Origin: Escherichia virus TH55 | DNA: 64,000 nt | Sequence record: MT446421.1 | Direction: 5' to 3' (one strand) | Shown here: positions 12,166 through 57,625 of the stretch, in pieces | Layout of the letters: each line of letters begins with the position of its first letter | Position numbering within the stretch: position 1 is the first letter of the stretch | The notes under the pieces: generated by a model | What the model was told of the DNA's origin: nothing | Database searches by the model: none | Seen by the model: the letters and a program-made list of their open reading frames with translations, nothing else | Made by a program: the position numbers and the translations under genes

Positions 12166-12851
12166 TACCAGCCCTCCATAGGGAATTCCAGATATACTTG
12201 AGCATTAACGCGGATTTCATTTGTAATCTTTTTAACACGGTCGGTATTACGAGACACACGACCAAACCAGCGCCAACCGTTACTTACTGCGCGAGAACCT
12301 GTATGCCATGTCTGCCAATCAAACTGGAGCAACGTGCGGTCAGGAGCATCCCACTTGGCTAATTCATTGGACTCAATTTTTTCCAGAACTTCTTTATGCC
12401 ACTGACGATAGATAAGTTCGCCTTCAGGAATCTGACTAAATTGTGCAGTTCCGGTTGCAAAATAAGTAGGACACACATCAGCGTTAACAAGACCAAGAAT
12501 ATGTTCAGAATGGTAACGAGGATTATCATAATCAGGTTGCCCTGCAGTAATAAAGTGTTGACCAACCGGAATATCCGGGCGTGGTACATCGTCATGGTGA
12601 TAACCTGGGATAGCAGGATACCAACCAGGCATCAGCATATGAACCCGAGAATCAAATACAACCTGGTCGGTGTTCCAATCATCCGGCAGACTCATAATAA
12701 AGCTACGAGTAATAGGACCGCCATTGTCAAAAGCGAAAGCCAATGAGCTGTTGAAGAACATAGTTTCGTTTTTGATTTTATCATTAGAAATTTTACCAGC
12801 GAAACTGCCTACTGCATGAGCTTGAGAATTAAAAGTTTTTGGACCGTTCAT
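12165..12851 (-). CDS. hypothetical protein
   Basis: 228-aa ORF preceded by promoter/hairpin cassette. Confidence 0.45.
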   Translation of the reverse strand: MNGPKTFNSQAHAVGSFAGKISNDKIKNETMFFNSSLAFAFDNGGPITRSFIMSLPDDWNTDQVVFDSRVHMLMPGWYPAIPGYHHDDVPRPDIPVGQHFITAGQPDYDNPRYHSEHILGLVNADVCPTYFATGTAQFSQIPEGELIYRQWHKEVLEKIESNELAKWDAPDRTLLQFDWQTWHTGSRAVSNGWRWFGRVSRNTDRVKKITNEIRVNAQVYLEFPMEGW

Positions 12852-16441: not shown

Positions 16442-16952
16442 TAAAACGATTAAGCTTACGTTTCCGTTTACGACCCTCTAATGTATACTCAGCCGCCAAA
16501 TCAAGAAGCTCATCTTTATCATAATTTTTAATATCAGTATAAGTTGGGCGGCGGTCAACCATTCCAAAGTGGTCACCATTTTCCAACATCAAATAACACA
16601 CCAAATGGTCATCATCGTCCGCATTAATAAGCTGCTTATAATCACTTGGTTCATTTAACGCATACACAGAATAACTCAGCCCAGCGAATTCCACTCGTTG
16701 AATACCCAGATTTACGTCAATAATTTCCAAGGCATCTGCAAAAGAAAGGTCTTCAGCTAAAGCAAAAATAAAAGGCAATTTGGTAGTATCGCCGCGACTT
16801 GTTGTTCTTCTTAAGAAATCATTGGAATAGCCCAAGTCGCGGCGGATTCTATAAAGAACTGTGTTAGTTTCAGTGGCAAGACCACTACCGCCAAACCATT
16901 CCACATTTGATAAAAGATTATCATATAAAGTCATAATTTTCTCCTCTCCCAA
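16380..16952 (-). CDS. hypothetical protein with KRKRK...FIAECRE tail
   Basis: 190 aa soluble ORF; C-terminus overlaps next gene. Confidence 0.45.
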   Translation of the reverse strand: MGEEKIMTLYDNLLSNVEWFGGSGLATETNTVLYRIRRDLGYSNDFLRRTTSRGDTTKLPFIFALAEDLSFADALEIIDVNLGIQRVEFAGLSYSVYALNEPSDYKQLINADDDDHLVCYLMLENGDHFGMVDRRPTYTDIKNYDKDELLDLAAEYTLEGRKRKRKLNRFIAECREYAKGVQNANVISAK

Positions 16953-16976
16953 TTAGGGGGCTTTGCCCCCTTTATC

Positions 16977-17570
16977 TTACTTAAGTGAATTGATGTATTC
17001 TTCAATGTCAGCGGACGTGGTATCCACACCAACCTGTGGACCTTTGAAGGTTTCAACACGCATCAAGGTGTCTTCAATATCAATCTTAGTCAATGCAGCG
17101 ATTTCAACAACATCATCTGCAGTCGCAATACCCAGGGCAGATACCTTACGGGTTTCGCGGATGTATTCCAGTTTAACAGCTAGTTCCTGACGAGAATCAT
17201 CCAGCTCTTTAACTTTCAATTTAATTTCATTACGCATTTCAACATAATCGTCTGCCTTCTTACGAAGTTGTTTAGCAGTGCGACGATACAGGAGACCCAG
17301 TTTAGCATGGACCTGGACATCAGCACCATCAGCAATCAGTTTGCGGATTTCACGCTCTTTTGAGGCGGCGAGTTGGTCTTTTTCATTCGCTAACTCGCGG
17401 ATGCGTTTTTCTTCATTAACAGACTTAACGTGGGCGGTCTGGAGCTCAGTAATCTTGTCAATCAGGGTAGACGCCGCTTGAGTATATTGGTCTTCAATAG
17501 ACAGGTTTTTTGCCATTGCAGTACCCAGTTTGGAGCGGATGAATTCAACAAGTTTCTTTAAAGTATTCAT
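16977..17570 (-). CDS. coiled-coil protein (possibly PspA/IM30-like)
   Basis: 197 aa, long charged heptad-like helical segments. Confidence 0.4.
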
Positions 17571-17642
17571 GGTATTTCCTTCAGTTGGTTAATGTTTTAT
17601 TATCCAGGGAACATACTATCATGTTCCCATTAAAGCACTAAT

Positions 17643-17948
17643 TTAGATTTTGTTTTCCTGCACACCATAGTAAAGTTCATCAGACACAATATCCAGGATG
17701 CGGCGAACATATTCATCATGGTATTGGCAGTCAAAATCAAATGCAACAGTAGTTTCCGCTTCACGAGTGAATTTAACTTGCACATTCAGGTGATTAACAA
17801 CGTTAGTTAATTTATCAGTAAAGAACTCTTTTGCTACCGCCTGTTGGACTTGTACTTTGAACTTGGTGTTGCGAATCATATTTTCAGCAGATGCGAAATT
17901 ACCAGTTTTATCAAAGTCAACAAGCGCCAGGTTGATGATGAATTTCAT
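17643..17948 (-). CDS. hypothetical protein
   Basis: 101-aa ORF behind family-2 promoter cassette. Confidence 0.45.
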   Translation of the reverse strand: MKFIINLALVDFDKTGNFASAENMIRNTKFKVQVQQAVAKEFFTDKLTNVVNHLNVQVKFTREAETTVAFDFDCQYHDEYVRRILDIVSDELYYGVQENKI

Positions 17949-18010
17949 TTTATTCTCCAGTGTTTTATTTGGTAACTCAGTATGGAATCATTATGCCTTA
18001 AAGCAGGGGG
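17949..18010 (-). promoter_or_regulatory. early promoter/5' leader cassette (family 2)
   Basis: coding strand CATAAT gattccatactgagttaccaaataaaacactggag ATG. Confidence 0.45.
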
Positions 18011-18034
18011 CTTGTATACCCCCCCCTTTTTGAA

Positions 18035-18478
18035 TTAAATTTCAAATTCTTTGCGGAAGTTGGAAGCATAAGACTGAACTGATGCTTTGTTGAACCCAAA
18101 CTCACGCACAATCATATCAATAACAGCTCTGCGAGCAGCACCATTAGACATATTAACAGTTTTGAACATATCATAGCATAAATCTTTGTTGCTCATACCG
18201 GAGCGTTTAGGTGCCTTACGTTCAGCTTTTGGTTCAGCTTTAGGAGTAGGTTTAACTTCTGGTTTAACCTGTCCATCATTCAGACCTTTAAAAATTTTAC
18301 CTGCCAGAGTTGCCAGTTTAGCAGCTTCGCCACGAGTGATACCAAATACTGCCGGGTTAAATGAAATACCTTCAGCTGTCAGACGTTTGAAGAACATACG
18401 GGCTGCGGATTGTGCTTCAGCTTCAGAAGAGTTGTTTAATGCCAGTTTAACGTACTTAACCAGTTTTGAAGTTTTCAT
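18035..18478 (-). CDS. hypothetical protein (paralog of 18562..18987)
   Basis: 147 aa from MKTSKL; C-terminal NGAARRAVIDMIV...VQSYASNFRK shared with neighbour. Confidence 0.45.
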   Translation of the reverse strand: MKTSKLVKYVKLALNNSSEAEAQSAARMFFKRLTAEGISFNPAVFGITRGEAAKLATLAGKIFKGLNDGQVKPEVKPTPKAEPKAERKAPKRSGMSNKDLCYDMFKTVNMSNGAARRAVIDMIVREFGFNKASVQSYASNFRKEFEI

Positions 18479-18540
18479 TTTATTATCCCGTTTGTTTATT
18501 TGGTAACTCAGTATGGGATAATTATACATTATCCCACCTG
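18479..18540 (-). promoter_or_regulatory. early promoter/hairpin cassette (family 2)
   Basis: coding strand GTTTTAC...gggata atg TATAAT tatccc atactgagttaccaaataaa...ATG. Confidence 0.5.
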
Positions 18541-18561
18541 GAAGTAAAACACTTTTCTCAA

Positions 18562-18987
18562 TTATTTTTGAGCTTTGCGGAAGTTGGAAGCATATGACTG
18601 AACAACAGTCTTTTTGATATCATGGGTGTTAACCAGAACATCAATCAGAGCGCGACGAGCTGCACCATCTGCCATATCAATTTCTGCAAATGCCTGGAAG
18701 CAAATGTCACGAGCATTACCAGATTTTGACTGGATTTTTTCTTCTTTAACTTCTTCAATTGGGAATTCAATCATTTCAGCTTGGATTAATTCAATGATAG
18801 ATTCTTTTGACTGTTTGGTGTTTACCTTCAGTTCAGAATTAAGGGACTTGGCGATGGCAACAATCTGGGTTGAAGTCAGATGAATAAGTGCATCTTCACG
18901 AATGCAGATTTCACATACTTCATCGGCAACCATTTTGTTGGTGATGCGGGTAACAGAGAATGCAGAGGTCAGGGTCAGGAAGTTCAT
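18562..18987 (-). CDS. hypothetical protein (paralog of 18035..18478)
   Basis: 141 aa from MNFLTL; C-terminal DGAARRALIDVLV...VQSYASNFRK. Confidence 0.45.
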   Translation of the reverse strand: MNFLTLTSAFSVTRITNKMVADEVCEICIREDALIHLTSTQIVAIAKSLNSELKVNTKQSKESIIELIQAEMIEFPIEEVKEEKIQSKSGNARDICFQAFAEIDMADGAARRALIDVLVNTHDIKKTVVQSYASNFRKAQK

Positions 18988-19060
18988 TTTATTTCTCCAA
19001 AGTTTTGTTTGATTCAGTGTGTAACTCAGTATGGAATCATTATGCATCCAGTCAATTCGG
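18988..19060 (-). promoter_or_regulatory. early promoter/leader cassette (family 2)
   Basis: coding strand GTGTAC...CATAAT gattccatactgagttacacactg...ggag ATG. Confidence 0.45.
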
Positions 19061-19108
19061 ATGTACACTACTTTTTGAAGAAAATTTCAAATTTATTCGG
19101 GGTATAAA

Positions 19109-19127
19109 AAAGCCCGCAATGCGGGCT
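19109..19127 (-). terminator. rho-independent terminator
   Basis: agcccgc aat gcgggct hairpin next to A-run (T-run on minus strand), right after stop of 19129..19683. Confidence 0.5.
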
Positions 19128-19128
19128 G

Positions 19129-19683
19129 TTAGTTCTTATAAAAGCGGAACGGATTTATATGAAAGGCGAGCATAGCCTTAGGGATTGGTCGGGACAGAAG
19201 GCTCTTGAGCTTCCAACCACAATAAACGCGCAGATAAAAGGTGATTCCACCGACCTTGAGATAAGGAACAGAAGCAAAAACACCCCAGGCATTATCCGTC
19301 CACATCCAGAGCCATCCGTGATGAGCTTTATCCGGGGAACCGGATTCAACATCAGGATTGCCTTTATAATGGAATTCTGAATTGCAATCACGACCGAGCT
19401 TGTGGTAAGCAAAATTGTATGCTTTGTTTCGCCAGAGCCAAGCTACTCGTTGGAAGTAAACACCTAACGGCCATTTTCGGATTTTTGACCAACGTTTGAC
19501 ATGACCCCGGTCACCATCAATCGGATTATCATAAGTCATCATCCAATCAAACCCGAACGGAAGTTTACCAGTCTTTTTATTATAGAATGGAACTACAAAT
19601 GGAGCCAGGATAACGGCCAGAATCATGGAGATAAAATCCAGTGGAACTAACAGAATCCAACTCAAATATTTTAACAGTTTCAT
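19129..19683 (-). CDS. hypothetical membrane-anchored protein
   Basis: 184 aa from MKLLKYLSW with N-terminal hydrophobic helix; longer ORF start runs through upstream terminator. Confidence 0.45.
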   Translation of the reverse strand: MKLLKYLSWILLVPLDFISMILAVILAPFVVPFYNKKTGKLPFGFDWMMTYDNPIDGDRGHVKRWSKIRKWPLGVYFQRVAWLWRNKAYNFAYHKLGRDCNSEFHYKGNPDVESGSPDKAHHGWLWMWTDNAWGVFASVPYLKVGGITFYLRVYCGWKLKSLLSRPIPKAMLAFHINPFRFYKN

Positions 19684-19706
19684 ACGTTTCTCTTTAGTTG
19701 ATTTAT

Positions 19707-19735
19707 AAAAAAGCCCCAACCTTTCGGAAGGGGCT
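19707..19735 (-). terminator. rho-independent terminator
   Basis: agcccc...ggggct stem with tcgg-type loop and adjacent A-run on plus strand. Confidence 0.5.
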
Positions 19736-19772
19736 ATACCTTGTCGGGGTTCCACCTGCAAGGCAAGTGTTC

Positions 19773-20168
19773 TTATCCGCGAGCGAATGCCATTGCAGCG
19801 CGTTCGTTAGCACGGTCGGTGATGTTCAAGAATTTATCACGAGCGATTTCGATTGGAGCACCAACCCAGTCAGCAGCACCATTACCTGGAGACTGTTTAG
19901 GGCGAACCATATAAGTTGAAACTTTGGAACCGGCTAGTTTGGCACCAGGTGCCGCGGCATTTTTAACGTCTTTAGCTTTGATGCCAAACCCAGTTACGAT
20001 ACCCCAAGAAACGCCATTAACTGGTTTCTTGAACATAACACGGTCACCAATTGAAACACCGGCTTTTTCTGGAGCCACTAAAGAAAATTTACCAGCTTCA
20101 GTCAGTACGGATTCGGTGATGGTATTGCGATTTAAAAATTCTGCATATGTAAGCATTTTGTTTTCCAT
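19773..20168 (-). CDS. hypothetical protein, possible internal-protein-like leader
   Basis: 131 aa; N-terminus MLTYAEFLNRNTITE loosely resembles the MKTYQEFIAE leader. Confidence 0.4.
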   Translation of the reverse strand: MENKMLTYAEFLNRNTITESVLTEAGKFSLVAPEKAGVSIGDRVMFKKPVNGVSWGIVTGFGIKAKDVKNAAAPGAKLAGSKVSTYMVRPKQSPGNGAADWVGAPIEIARDKFLNITDRANERAAMAFARG

Positions 20169-20205
20169 TATTAGGGTTGTTGTTAATATTTATATTCCAT
20201 AGTAC

Positions 20206-20254
20206 CGGATGCACCATCCGCTCGGATTTCTCATACTACCGGACGCACCGTCCG
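20206..20254 (-). ncRNA. two tandem covarying hairpins (candidate small stable RNA or processing signal)
   Basis: cggatg-cac-catccg and cggacg-cac-cgtccg with compensatory changes, in a 225-bp noncoding stretch beside the tRNAs. Confidence 0.3.
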
Positions 20255-20392
20255 CTCTGGAAAAACTCCGTAAAAGGGTGCGCCGTTTCAGCTGTGATAT
20301 AAGGGGGCATCAACAAATCGTAAAGATTTATTAATGCCAGTCCTTAAACAGGGAACTTCAGTCCGACGACTTACCGGTAGCGACCCGGTTTC

Positions 20393-20632
20393 TCATTCAA
20401 TTGTAATAGCTAATTTGACTTTAACAACCTTATAATTGGAATCAAGGTCATTGAATTCCATAAAATTTGTTGCTAATCTGCGAGTCGGGAAACTTAGATA
20501 TTTATTATGCTCAGGTGGAGCGGTTAATGCAAACCATGGGACTTGTTTATCATTTTCATCAAACTCATCAAAGCTATAAACCAACTCGTTGTTGGTTATA
20601 TCCATAACTGCATATGATTCACTAATAACCAT
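20393..20632 (-). CDS. hypothetical protein
   Basis: 79 aa from MVISESY with GAGGA SD; longer ORF start overlaps tRNA-Arg. Confidence 0.35.
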   Translation of the reverse strand: MVISESYAVMDITNNELVYSFDEFDENDKQVPWFALTAPPEHNKYLSFPTRRLATNFMEFNDLDSNYKVVKVKLAITIE

Positions 20633-20648
20633 AATATCCTCGGTAATT

Positions 20649-20724
20649 GGTCGGGGTGGTGGGATTCTAACCCACAACCTACGGTTTAGAAGACCGTTGC
20701 TCTATACAATTGAGCTACACCCCG
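20649..20724 (-). tRNA. tRNA-Arg (anticodon TCT)
   Basis: hand-folded cloverleaf: acceptor CGGGGTG/CACCCCG, D-arm GCTC/GAGC, anticodon arm ACGGT-CTTCTAA-ACCGT, T-arm GTGGG-TTAGAAT-CCCAC, encoded CCA. Confidence 0.8.
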
Positions 20725-20800
20725 GGTGGCCCCATCCGGACTTGAACCGGAAACCTGCCAGTTATGAGCCGGATGCTCTAACCAATTGAGCTACAGGGCC
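20725..20800 (-). tRNA. tRNA-Met/Ile2 (anticodon CAT)
   Basis: acceptor GGCCCTG, D-arm GCTC-AATTGGTTA-GAGC, loop CTCATAA, T-arm TCCGG-TTCAAGT-CCGGA; anticodon stem has one mismatch; abuts tRNA-Arg. Confidence 0.7.
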
Positions 20801-20805
20801 TAAAA

Positions 20806-21075
20806 TTAAATTACAAATCCAGCGGGAGCATTATCATCTTTAACCATATGCTGAATTGTATGATAAGTCATTTCTTCTGGTGCAACCAGATAAGCCGCAG
20901 TGTTAACCAACGGGATTAATTTGACTTTATTGAATGTTGAACAACCAATTGACATAAAGGTTTCGCCTGTTGGATGCTGAATTTCGCCAAATTGGCACTC
21001 ATACGAAATAGAGCAACGTTTGGTAGTGGTTGTCTTTGTTTTAGGGTCGTAAAAAGCTAATTTTAATACTAACAT
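20806..21075 (-). CDS. hypothetical protein
   Basis: 89-aa ORF. Confidence 0.4.
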   Translation of the reverse strand: MLVLKLAFYDPKTKTTTTKRCSISYECQFGEIQHPTGETFMSIGCSTFNKVKLIPLVNTAAYLVAPEEMTYHTIQHMVKDDNAPAGFVI

Positions 21076-30629: not shown

Positions 30630-31151
30630 ATGAGCACTGACCTAGGAGACTCCATGGAAGGAGCCTCAATCGATGTTACGTTTACAGCTCAATTAGAAAC
30701 AAACGAAACATTAGTCGAAATAAATATAACTGAATATGAGGTCACCCCTGGCGTTAATGTTGAGGGAAATCATCTTTATGGTGTTTATGAATCCGTGTTT
30801 GGATTTGCAGATGATGCACTTAAATATCGGCTTAATGATGAATTTAAAACTGCTGGTTCATGGGAAGACCTTCCTACCGATAAGAGTACTCAATTGTATC
30901 TCTGGAGGGCCCCATCGAGCCTCCAGAAGGTCTTTTCATACACGGTAACCCTAACCTATGATTTTCAAGAAGAGAGCTCTGGCGGAGACACAGGGAACTC
31001 TGGTGGCAGTAATAGCCGTACAGGTAATGAGACCGACCCACCTCCTGCTCCAGTAAGAAAGACAATGACAAAAGTTTACACAAAAACTATCGTTGGCAAC
31101 TGGTCAAGATGGGCCGATAAATTGCGTTCATACGTATACGCGAGGGATTAA
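30630..31151 (+). CDS. 5.1: baseplate-associated protein gp5.1
   Basis: ORF between gp5 and gp5.4; start at first ATG after gp5 stop. Confidence 0.6.
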
Positions 31152-57230: not shown

Positions 57231-57258
57231 GGGACCCTTGAGGTCCCTTTCTTGTTTT
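57231..57258 (+). terminator. bidirectional rho-independent terminator after gene 23
   Basis: gggacc cttga ggtccc with flanking A5 and T-rich runs. Confidence 0.65.
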
Positions 57259-57539
57259 CATACCATACCATTTAAATGAACTTCTACCCGGCGCTTGATG
57301 AGGTCTCTGAAGTTAACATTGTTTTCTTGAAGTTTCAACCAGTTACCATTTTTATCTTTAGTGTGAGTAGAATAATTACCATTCCACCAGAAATCAGTGT
57401 CATATGCTAAGTTTTCATATTTTTTAACTAGTTTGTTCAGAGCATTACCATTAACACCATTTGGGTATTTGTTGACCAATGTAATAACTTCAATTTCCAA
57501 TTTTTTAAAGGTGTTCAGAAGGAAAGTTGCTTTGTTCAT
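57258..57539 (-). CDS. hypothetical protein on opposite strand between genes 23 and 24
   Basis: 93-aa ORF with its own family-2 early promoter cassette. Confidence 0.5.
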   Translation of the reverse strand: MNKATFLLNTFKKLEIEVITLVNKYPNGVNGNALNKLVKKYENLAYDTDFWWNGNYSTHTKDKNGNWLKLQENNVNFRDLIKRRVEVHLNGMV

Positions 57540-57611
57540 TTTTAAACTCCAAGGTTTTGTTTGTTAACTCAGTATGGAATCATTATGTCTTATCTTAATC
57601 TGGTTGTAAAC
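57540..57611 (-). promoter_or_regulatory. early promoter/leader cassette (family 2)
   Basis: coding strand GTTTAC...CATAAT gattccatactgagttaacaaacaaaaccttggag ATG. Confidence 0.5.
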
Positions 57612-57617
57612 AACTTT

Positions 57618-57625
57618 TATAAATA
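57618..57625 (+). promoter_or_regulatory. late promoter TATAAATA upstream of gene 24
   Basis: exact TATAAATA, abuts -35 of divergent early promoter. Confidence 0.55.

Follow-up and report, generated by a model that had tools for sequence, protein, structure and literature searches.

Putative promoter-early stem-loop-type cassettes ahead of small accessory genes in Escherichia virus TH55 and related phages

Why should small genes without known function be preceded, in one phage genome, by almost identical stretches of ~50 base pairs (bp) that reach from the -10 box to the ATG? The question is raised by four genes in a stretch of 64,000 nucleotides (nt) of Escherichia virus TH55 (MT446421.1), hereafter the window, namely gene A (17643..17948, 101 amino acids (aa)), gene B (18035..18478, 147 aa), gene C (18562..18987, 141 aa), and a distant gene (57258..57539, 93 aa), which are led by the cassettes c1, c2, c3, and c4, respectively. 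All of these genes and their cassettes lie on the minus strand, which carries the early genes of the phage. A preliminary description of the sequence had given the coordinates of the four open reading frames (ORFs), which are all right, stop codons included, and had set their cassettes, each combining a promoter, a leader, and a ribosome-binding site, apart from another family in the window. This distinction holds, and the two families are called class 2 and class 1 here. The class 2 cassettes are probably composite early-gene regulatory units of the promoter-early stem-loop (PeSL) type, in a form that is particular to the lineages of Gaprivervirus and Gualtarvirus.

The 1.9 kb searched around the first three genes (17400-19300) shares 100% identity with Escherichia phage UPEC07, a T4-like Gaprivervirus, and 93-98% identity with ~30 further Gaprivervirus phages, which are SP18-like T4-type myoviruses. 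By means of well-annotated relatives, the locus was placed in the e.6-to-tRNA variable region (e-to-tRNA segment). Whole-genome counts were taken on UPEC07 (170,004 bp; record coordinate = 128150 - window coordinate), and a 3-kb segment of the window was compared with nine relatives for the junctions of insertions and deletions (indels).

Anatomy and genomic copies of the cassettes

Alignment of the 160 nt upstream of each of the four ATGs revealed a common unit. In its 5' part, an AAAAAG tract, a -35 box of the T4 early type, a non-conserved spacer of 16-17 nt, and a (C/T)ATAAT -10 box follow one another in 4/4 copies, the -35 box being TGTACA, TTTACA, or TATACA with a 17-nt spacer each and TTTACT with a 16-nt spacer in c2. 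The -10 box is followed by the invariant GATTCC-ATACTGAGTTA(C/A), which reaches ~14 nt beyond the putative transcription start at the A of CCATAC, and then by an A/C-rich CAAAYAAAAC, GGAG (GGGAT in c2), and ATG, with GGAG or GGGA lying 6-7 nt ahead of the ATG in every copy. Near the 3' end, GGAGAATAAAATG corresponds to the published cleavage consensus of the phage RegB/S1 endoribonuclease. The cassette from CATAAT/TATAAT to ATG that had been proposed earlier is present, but the conserved unit is larger and adds the AAAAAG tract and the -35 box. Of its details, GGAG is found in c1, c3, and c4 but not in c2, and the tail written as NCaaa is found in three of the four copies but not in c3, where a 9-nt insertion, CACACTGAAT, precedes CAAAC.

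The 22-nt motif ATAATGATTCCATACTGAGTTA, read on the coding strand, occurs without mismatch at 17973-17994, 19022-19043, and 57565-57586 and with two mismatches at 18504-18525, and every copy in the window precedes one small gene. No match appeared in 100/100 dinucleotide-preserving shuffles, so that four real copies stand against none expected by chance.

Cassette c3 (18988..19075, minus strand), which leads gene C, carries AAAAAG, TGTACA at 19067-19062, a 17-nt spacer, CATAAT at 19044-19039, and the invariant block down to 19022, and its leader ends in GGAGAAATAAA ahead of the ATG at 18987-18985. Its stem-loop element is an intrinsic terminator hairpin on the same strand (19111..19127; AGCCCGCATTGCGGGCT followed by T6), which ends the gene of a DUF7338 protein and lies ~40 nt upstream (z=-3.1 against shuffles). 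In c2 (18479..18561, minus strand), which leads gene B, TTTACT at 18548-18543 and TATAAT at 18526-18521 are followed by the invariant core, and a 9-bp hairpin, TGGGATAAT/ATTATCCCA, encloses the -10 box and is more stable than any of 200 shuffles (z=-4.4); the 3' end is GGGATAATAAA, a RegB site of the GGAU type. Cassette c1 (17949..18034, minus strand), which leads gene A, has TATACA at 18018-18013, CATAAT at 17995-17990, and the invariant core, with the -35 box in the loop of a G-run/C-run hairpin at 18006-18023. Thus a stem-loop lies next to or overlaps the promoter in three of the four window copies (c1, c2, and c3). The fourth cassette, c4 (57540..57625, minus strand), contains TTTACA at 57610-57605, a 17-nt spacer, CATAAT at 57587-57582, the core down to 57565, and GGAGTTTAAAA at its 3' end, followed by the ATG at 57539-57537.

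The four transcribed leaders, which are A/C-rich and ~35 nt long, show less structure than shuffled control sequences (z +0.8 to +1.65). A structured cis-regulatory RNA in the leaders was rejected, as all four folds are weaker than those of the controls. In an Rfam scan of 16500-21000 on both strands, two tRNAs alone passed and the leaders gave no match.

A conserved ~23-nt block before genes is superficially similar to a T7 promoter, and c1 includes a TGCTTTA (18005-17999), both of which could be taken to suggest another promoter class, either MotA-dependent middle, gp55 late, or that of a phage single-subunit RNA polymerase. In a MotA-dependent middle promoter, the Mot box (a/t)(a/t)TGCTT(t/c)A has its centre at -30 and is followed after 11-13 nt by TAnnnT. 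However, the TGCTTTA of c1 is 3 nt from the -10 box instead of the required 11-13, the other copies have none, and a Mot box at the proper distance was found in none of the four window copies. The late promoter sequence TATAAATA occurs in no cassette. To our knowledge, T4-like phages encode no single-subunit RNA polymerase, and none is annotated in UPEC07. Since every copy has a -35 box, a 16-17 nt spacer, and a -10 box with T4 early features, the middle-promoter, late-promoter, and phage-polymerase readings were rejected, their probability being close to nil. The Mot-box-like TGCTTTA in the c1 spacer (17999-18005, minus strand), whose spacing is wrong for MotA activation, is probably a chance match or a relic.

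In the whole genome, the class 2 core CATACTGAGTTA (≤1 mismatch) is found in 11 copies, all of them on the early strand, exactly 6 nt downstream of (C/T)ATAAT, and ahead of an ORF. The pattern of upstream tract, -35 box, spacer, and -10 box holds in 11/11 genomic copies. Column counts over these 11 paralogous copies revealed that the -10 box and the next ~20 nt are invariant and that the -35 box is well but less conserved, while in the promoter spacer directly upstream of the -10 box only 4-8 of the 11 copies are identical, which places a sharp boundary at the -10 box. Class 2 was found in 34-37 Gaprivervirus records and a few Gualtarvirus-type phages, and in none of T4, RB49, and KVP40. A scan of IMG/VR with the 15-mer core returned mostly single chance matches, and several copies together were seen only in known Gaprivervirus isolates and in one 163-kb MP1-like contig.

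The sharp edge at the -10 box raises the possibility that the invariant block (GATTCC-ATACTGAGTTAC), made up of the discriminator and the first ~14 nt of the transcript, acts as a functional signal in its own right, that selection for this signal rather than recombination keeps the copies alike, and that gene shuffling is a by-product. Candidate roles include the binding of a factor from the phage or the host, an enhancer of translation or of S1 standby, an entry site for RNase E, and the tuning of promoter escape. Both Providencia phage PSTRCR_127 and the 163-kb MP1-like phage retain the core (C/T)ATACTGAGTTA(A/C)C even though the ribosome-binding-site part differs there, and MP1-type phages are reported to share <40% DNA homology with other Tevenvirinae (PMC5384007), which favors a signal. 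Against it, the leaders have neither predicted RNA structure (z>0) nor an Rfam match, no antisense partner of the core was found on the opposite strand across the whole genome, and no candidate binding protein was found. We regard a functional block with shuffling as its by-product as a serious possibility toward which we do not quite lean, and it is compatible with PeSL-type cassettes rather than exclusive of them. A narrower version, in which the ~24-nt block from -10 to ~+14 (ATAAT-GATTCC-ATACTGAGTTAC) would be an unrecognised regulatory signal of an early-gene subset in Gaprivervirus and Gualtarvirus, appears unlikely on present evidence; doubtful to the same degree is its corollary, in which a factor bound to the DNA or to the 5' end of the mRNA would set the timing, stability, or translation of a regulon of ~11 genes. 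If it were true, the block would be more than recombination homology, and the regulon of ~11 genes would include three paralogues of a three-helix domain family. The invariant leader core offers, in any case, a defined candidate signal.

The class 1 family (...ATCCCATCAACTACTGA-GGAG...), which counts 10 genomic copies, has the same upstream half as class 2. Both have an A-tract, a -35 box, a -10 box, CCAT at the presumed start, ACTGAG, and GGAGAATAAAATG, and they agree in strand and nearly in copy number (10 vs 11). In contrast, class 1 (...ATCCCATCAACTACTGAGGAG...), which flanks early genes including those of internal proteins (IP), is without the GTTACCAAAYAAAAC insert and continues with CAACT behind CCAT, and its leader is widespread, being conserved in 739 phage records, including Tequatrovirus IP loci and Klebsiella phages, whereas class 2 is confined to two genera. 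Judged by the common CCAT...ACTGAG...GGAGAATAAAATG, the two classes appear to be related. In the window, class 1 copies are located at ~3382, ~22268, and ~22577 (minus strand; ...TATAATTATCCCATCAACTACTGAGGAGAATAAAATG).

Recombination between cassettes in related phages

Four relatives, MN01, P8, CJ20, and TH54, carry an additional gene of 98 aa (gene X) with its own cassette, ~370 bp in all, between genes C and B. In pairwise alignment, window positions 18476-18525 match both ends of the gene X insert, so that the module is bounded by a 50-bp direct repeat of the cassette. In a three-way alignment, the left part of c2 equals the MN01 cassette before gene X, including the diagnostic TATAATTATCCC, and the right part equals the MN01 cassette before gene B (CAAACGGGATAATAAAATG). 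The switch point falls inside 22 common nt, CCATACTGAGTTACCAAATAAA, with no bases lost or gained. On these alignments, c2 combines, as an exact chimera, two cassettes that MN01, P8, CJ20, and TH54 carry separately, and it matches the single chimeric PeSL that Arbiol et al. predict for excision or integration. The locus is an unusually clean natural case of a PeSL, in which one genome has the recombinant cassette and its sisters have both parental cassettes with the gene between them.

Other junctions were also located in parts of the cassettes. Phage vB_EcoM_RZ is without gene A, and its sequence points to a crossover in the ribosome-binding-site part between CTGGAGAATAAAA of c1 (TGGAGAATAAAA) and the relic TGGATAATAAAA; this relic of a cassette 3' end (TGGATAATAAAAC) lies at 17594..17606 on the minus strand, upstream of e.6. 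SP18 has an additional cassette-led gene, gp131, elsewhere, and that module is bounded by the -35 box and the ribosome-binding site.

These junctions could be accounted for if the cassettes were ordinary early promoters and ribosome-binding sites that are alike by function, with breaks found there because intergenic breaks are tolerated and junctions within genes would be purged by selection. Two local indels indeed use other short homologies. The loss of the DUF7338 gene (19129-19683, minus strand; PF24027, E=1e-62) from SP18 traces to a crossover that joined two intrinsic terminators at their T-tails, GGGCTTTTTTATA, with junctions near 19103-19115 and 19700-19713, and in P479 and TH54 a gene of 399 nt is joined inside a promoter-spacer hairpin ahead of e.6. 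Nevertheless, the c2 crossover occurred within 22 nt of identity with no base lost or gained, a direct cassette repeat of 50 bp lies on either side of the inserted module, three paralogues and the DUF5417 duplicates of another genus each own a copy of the cassette, and mini-circle junctions between -10 and ATG were obtained experimentally in RB49/phi1 (PMC2839356). Likeness by function with tolerated intergenic breaks is, in our view, improbable.

Another view, that the cassettes are sites of a dedicated site-specific recombination system or mobile element comparable to integron attC sites or homing-endonuclease targets, draws on the discrete units of one gene and one site, which resemble gene cassettes, and on the homing endonuclease genes that exist in these genomes. 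However, the cassettes are linked to no gene for a recombinase or an endonuclease, and T4-type homologous recombination suffices for homologies of 20-50 bp. The crossover points vary from event to event (leader core, ribosome-binding site, and -35 box), which favors general homologous or short-homology recombination over a site-specific system. A dedicated system is accordingly very improbable.

The DUF7338 gene is missing from TH54 and DCP80 as well as from SP18. The middle promoter of e.6 (17607-17637, minus strand) is a textbook promoter of the MotA type, with TGCTTTA at 17637-17631, 12 nt, and TAGTAT at 17618-17613, and is enclosed in the hairpin GGGAACAT..ATGTTCCC. The insertion of the 399-nt gene in P479 and TH54 swaps its Mot box for an early-type -35 box (TGTTTACA), and the promoter class of e.6 therefore differs among close relatives.

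The RegB/S1 site and the likeness to known stem-loop cassettes

RegB/S1 targets 11 single-stranded nt that overlap the ribosome-binding site of early genes; the sequence is GGAGAAUAAAA in T4 and, more generally, GGAGRAYARAA, with GGAU tolerated provided that the A-rich tail is strict (Durand et al., 2006; PMC1702504). An exact match to the T4 consensus is seen at the 3' end of c1 (GGAGAATAAAA, 17958-17948, minus strand), and the 3' end of c2 (GGATAATAAAA) has the permitted GGAU form with a strict A-rich tail. The regB gene itself is located in the window (6993..7487, minus strand), and its product, which is predicted to cleave GGAG(A)AUAAAA in the cassettes, is 99.4% identical to SP18 RegB (PF10715, E=2.9e-72). 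The lack of structure in the leaders fits the single-strandedness needed at a RegB/S1 site. By analogy with the early genes of T4, the cassette-led genes may be expressed at once after infection and then inactivated by RegB cleavage at the ribosome-binding site. An optimal RegB site at the ribosome-binding-site end would link gene mobility to built-in early-on, early-off control.

PeSLs are known from RB49/phi1 (Arbiol et al., 2010; PMC2839356) and also from T4/PST and KVP40/nt-1 (Comeau et al., 2014; PMC4122927). They share with class 2 the AT-rich tract, the early promoter of the sigma-70 type, the ribosome-binding site, and the ATG, and the stem-loop placements reported in RB49/phi1, around the -35 box, around the -10 box, and just upstream, are those of c1, c2, and c3 (PMC2839356). 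In both, the cassettes cluster in variable regions ahead of small genes without known function, and the indels of close relatives are cassette-bounded, with crossovers between -10 and ATG that leave a chimeric cassette; the junctions of the gene X module, the gene A deletion, and the gp131 module are all located in parts of the cassette. The class 2 promoter fits the T4/PST consensus TTTACW-N17-TAYWAT (PMC4122927) except for C at the first position of the -10 box. On the other hand, the sequence of class 2 is lineage-specific, its strictly invariant part is the -10 box with ~20 nt downstream instead of the -35 box or the stem-loop, c4 is without a stem-loop, and mini-circles, which were shown experimentally in RB49/phi1 with junctions between -10 and ATG (PMC2839356), are presumed here. 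The mechanism has already been published for T4-like phages, and class 2 is a fresh example rather than a new type of element. It extends the PeSL model to a further T-even genus, Gaprivervirus, and the same cassette occurs in a Gualtarvirus phage and an MP1-like phage.

With PeSL-type cassettes, a small accessory gene would receive a strong promoter for host sigma-70, built like the early ones of T4 (A-tract, TTTACA-like -35 box, 17 nt, and (C/T)ATAAT), an unstructured leader of ~35 nt, and a ribosome-binding site that would double as an optimal target of the phage RegB/S1 endoribonuclease. The gene would be switched on at once after infection and then shut off post-transcriptionally. The homologous recombination system of the phage is very active, and crossovers between near-identical copies of ~50 bp may excise, insert, duplicate, or relocate units of one cassette and one gene, possibly through mini-circle intermediates. 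The cassettes also flag the accessory early genes that are likeliest to vary among therapeutic phage isolates.

Several points weigh against this explanation. No stem-loop was detected at c4 (z=+0.4), which therefore conforms only in part to the definition of a PeSL. The RegB matches of c3 (GGAGAAAUAAA) and c4 (GGAGUUUAAAA) are imperfect, deviating at positions 5-8. The use and timing of the promoters are predicted from consensus matches. Each indel can be read as an insertion or as a deletion. Recombination alone does not explain why the segment from -10 to ~+14 stays unchanged across 11 paralogous copies and a second genus next to a variable spacer; a further function of this block is likely.

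Genes behind the cassettes and neighboring features

The tie between the cassettes and particular gene families is a further feature of class 2. Genes A (phrog_7474), B (phrog_18416), and C (phrog_9997) and the c4-led gene (phrog_6003) belong to PHROGs families without assigned function only, and no significant Pfam match was obtained for any of the four. One GenBank record uses the labels "H15 domain" and "rho-N domain", for which there was no support at Pfam thresholds. As had been proposed, genes B and C are paralogs with unrelated N-terminal halves. They share 44% identity over 73 aa in BLASTP (E=1e-18), limited to the C-terminal ~60 residues, which end in VQSYASNFRK in gene C; this shared stretch is not low-complexity. 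In PHROGs, B and C are placed in separate families that cross-match through the C-terminal domain, and phrog_17275 consists of that domain alone. A third paralogue of 71 aa (E=1.5e-11 to C) is located outside the window, at 12280-12495 of UPEC07, just upstream of motA, and is also preceded by a class 2 cassette. All three genomic paralogues are therefore cassette-led, and three of the 11 class 2 cassettes lead one family.

The remote-homology check suggested for the shared domain was carried out as an exhaustive HMMER profile search of 1.84 billion representatives and retrieved 14 proteins. The domain architecture was read for 13 of the 14, with P0016 (4478 aa, eight short matched stretches) left out. 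Among these 13, the domain either forms the C-terminus of a protein of 138-198 aa or makes up a protein of 69-74 aa by itself, and the N-terminal halves fall into four groups, which are B-type (KYINLALNNSSEGEA...), C-type (...QLVxIAKSxN...KVNTKQSKE...), a third type (P0006 and P0009), and none. The association of one shared domain with several N-terminal partners is real. According to the AlphaFold model, gene B encodes two three-helix domains, an N-terminal one and the shared C-terminal one (predicted local distance difference test score (pLDDT) ~90), joined by a disordered Lys/Pro-rich linker at residues 69-88. Foldseek searches with this model found no PDB match with E <0.6 and, in BFVD, uncharacterised phage proteins only.

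The cassette travels with particular gene families beyond the genus. In the Gualtarvirus PSTRCR_127, it leads a protein of 74 aa that has a C-type N-terminus and the C-terminal domain, without the middle. The 163-kb MP1-like phage, which belongs to another genus, has class 2 cassettes ahead of four genes, one B-type, one C-type, and two DUF5417 paralogues, each with its own copy and in a changed order. A related ORF of 79 aa (MKLQRESIK...) is cassette-led at 30816-31055 of UPEC07, where the record annotates a minus-strand ORF instead; its 89-aa homologue on the MP1-like contig matches DUF5417 (E=1.7e-25) and is duplicated there.

The earlier suggestion of cassette-mediated duplication and domain shuffling was borne out in part. 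Cassette-mediated gain and loss of whole genes is evident from the gene X module of four relatives and from the c2 chimera, but a domain swap driven by the cassettes is not, as the domain junction lies within the ORFs, in the linker, away from the cassettes; the cassette alone cannot account for the shuffling of domains. We speculate that a crossover in the cassette together with a second one in the conserved 3' domain would give a swap of N-terminal halves. At their 3' ends, genes B and C agree in 30 of the last 31 nt, and identical codons make up 9/10 there vs 7/16 at the conserved residues in the remaining domain. Selection at the nucleotide level on these 31 nt was rejected, as most synonymous sites here are changed in the third paralogue and in the MP1-like homologue. 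The codon comparison suggests, with modest statistical support, that the more likely cause is a recent event of gene conversion between B and C, which lie in tandem.

The c4-led gene is inserted on the early strand between genes 23 and 24, which are late genes. Gaprivervirus genomes have it; elsewhere, in most T4-like genera, similarity ends with gene 23, and in VR5 it runs ~200 nt past the end of gene 23. A T4 late promoter, TATAAATA, is located on the plus strand at 57618-57625, ~27 nt ahead of the start codon of the gene 24 homologue. This promoter falls within the AT-rich upstream tract of the minus-strand c4, so that an early and a late promoter overlap back to back.

Two adjoining tRNA genes on the minus strand (20648-20800) encode tRNA-Arg(tct) and a tRNA with a CAT anticodon, which is called Met here and is annotated as Ile2 in one relative. 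SP18 has three tRNAs at the position of these two, and the tRNA set is therefore variable as well.

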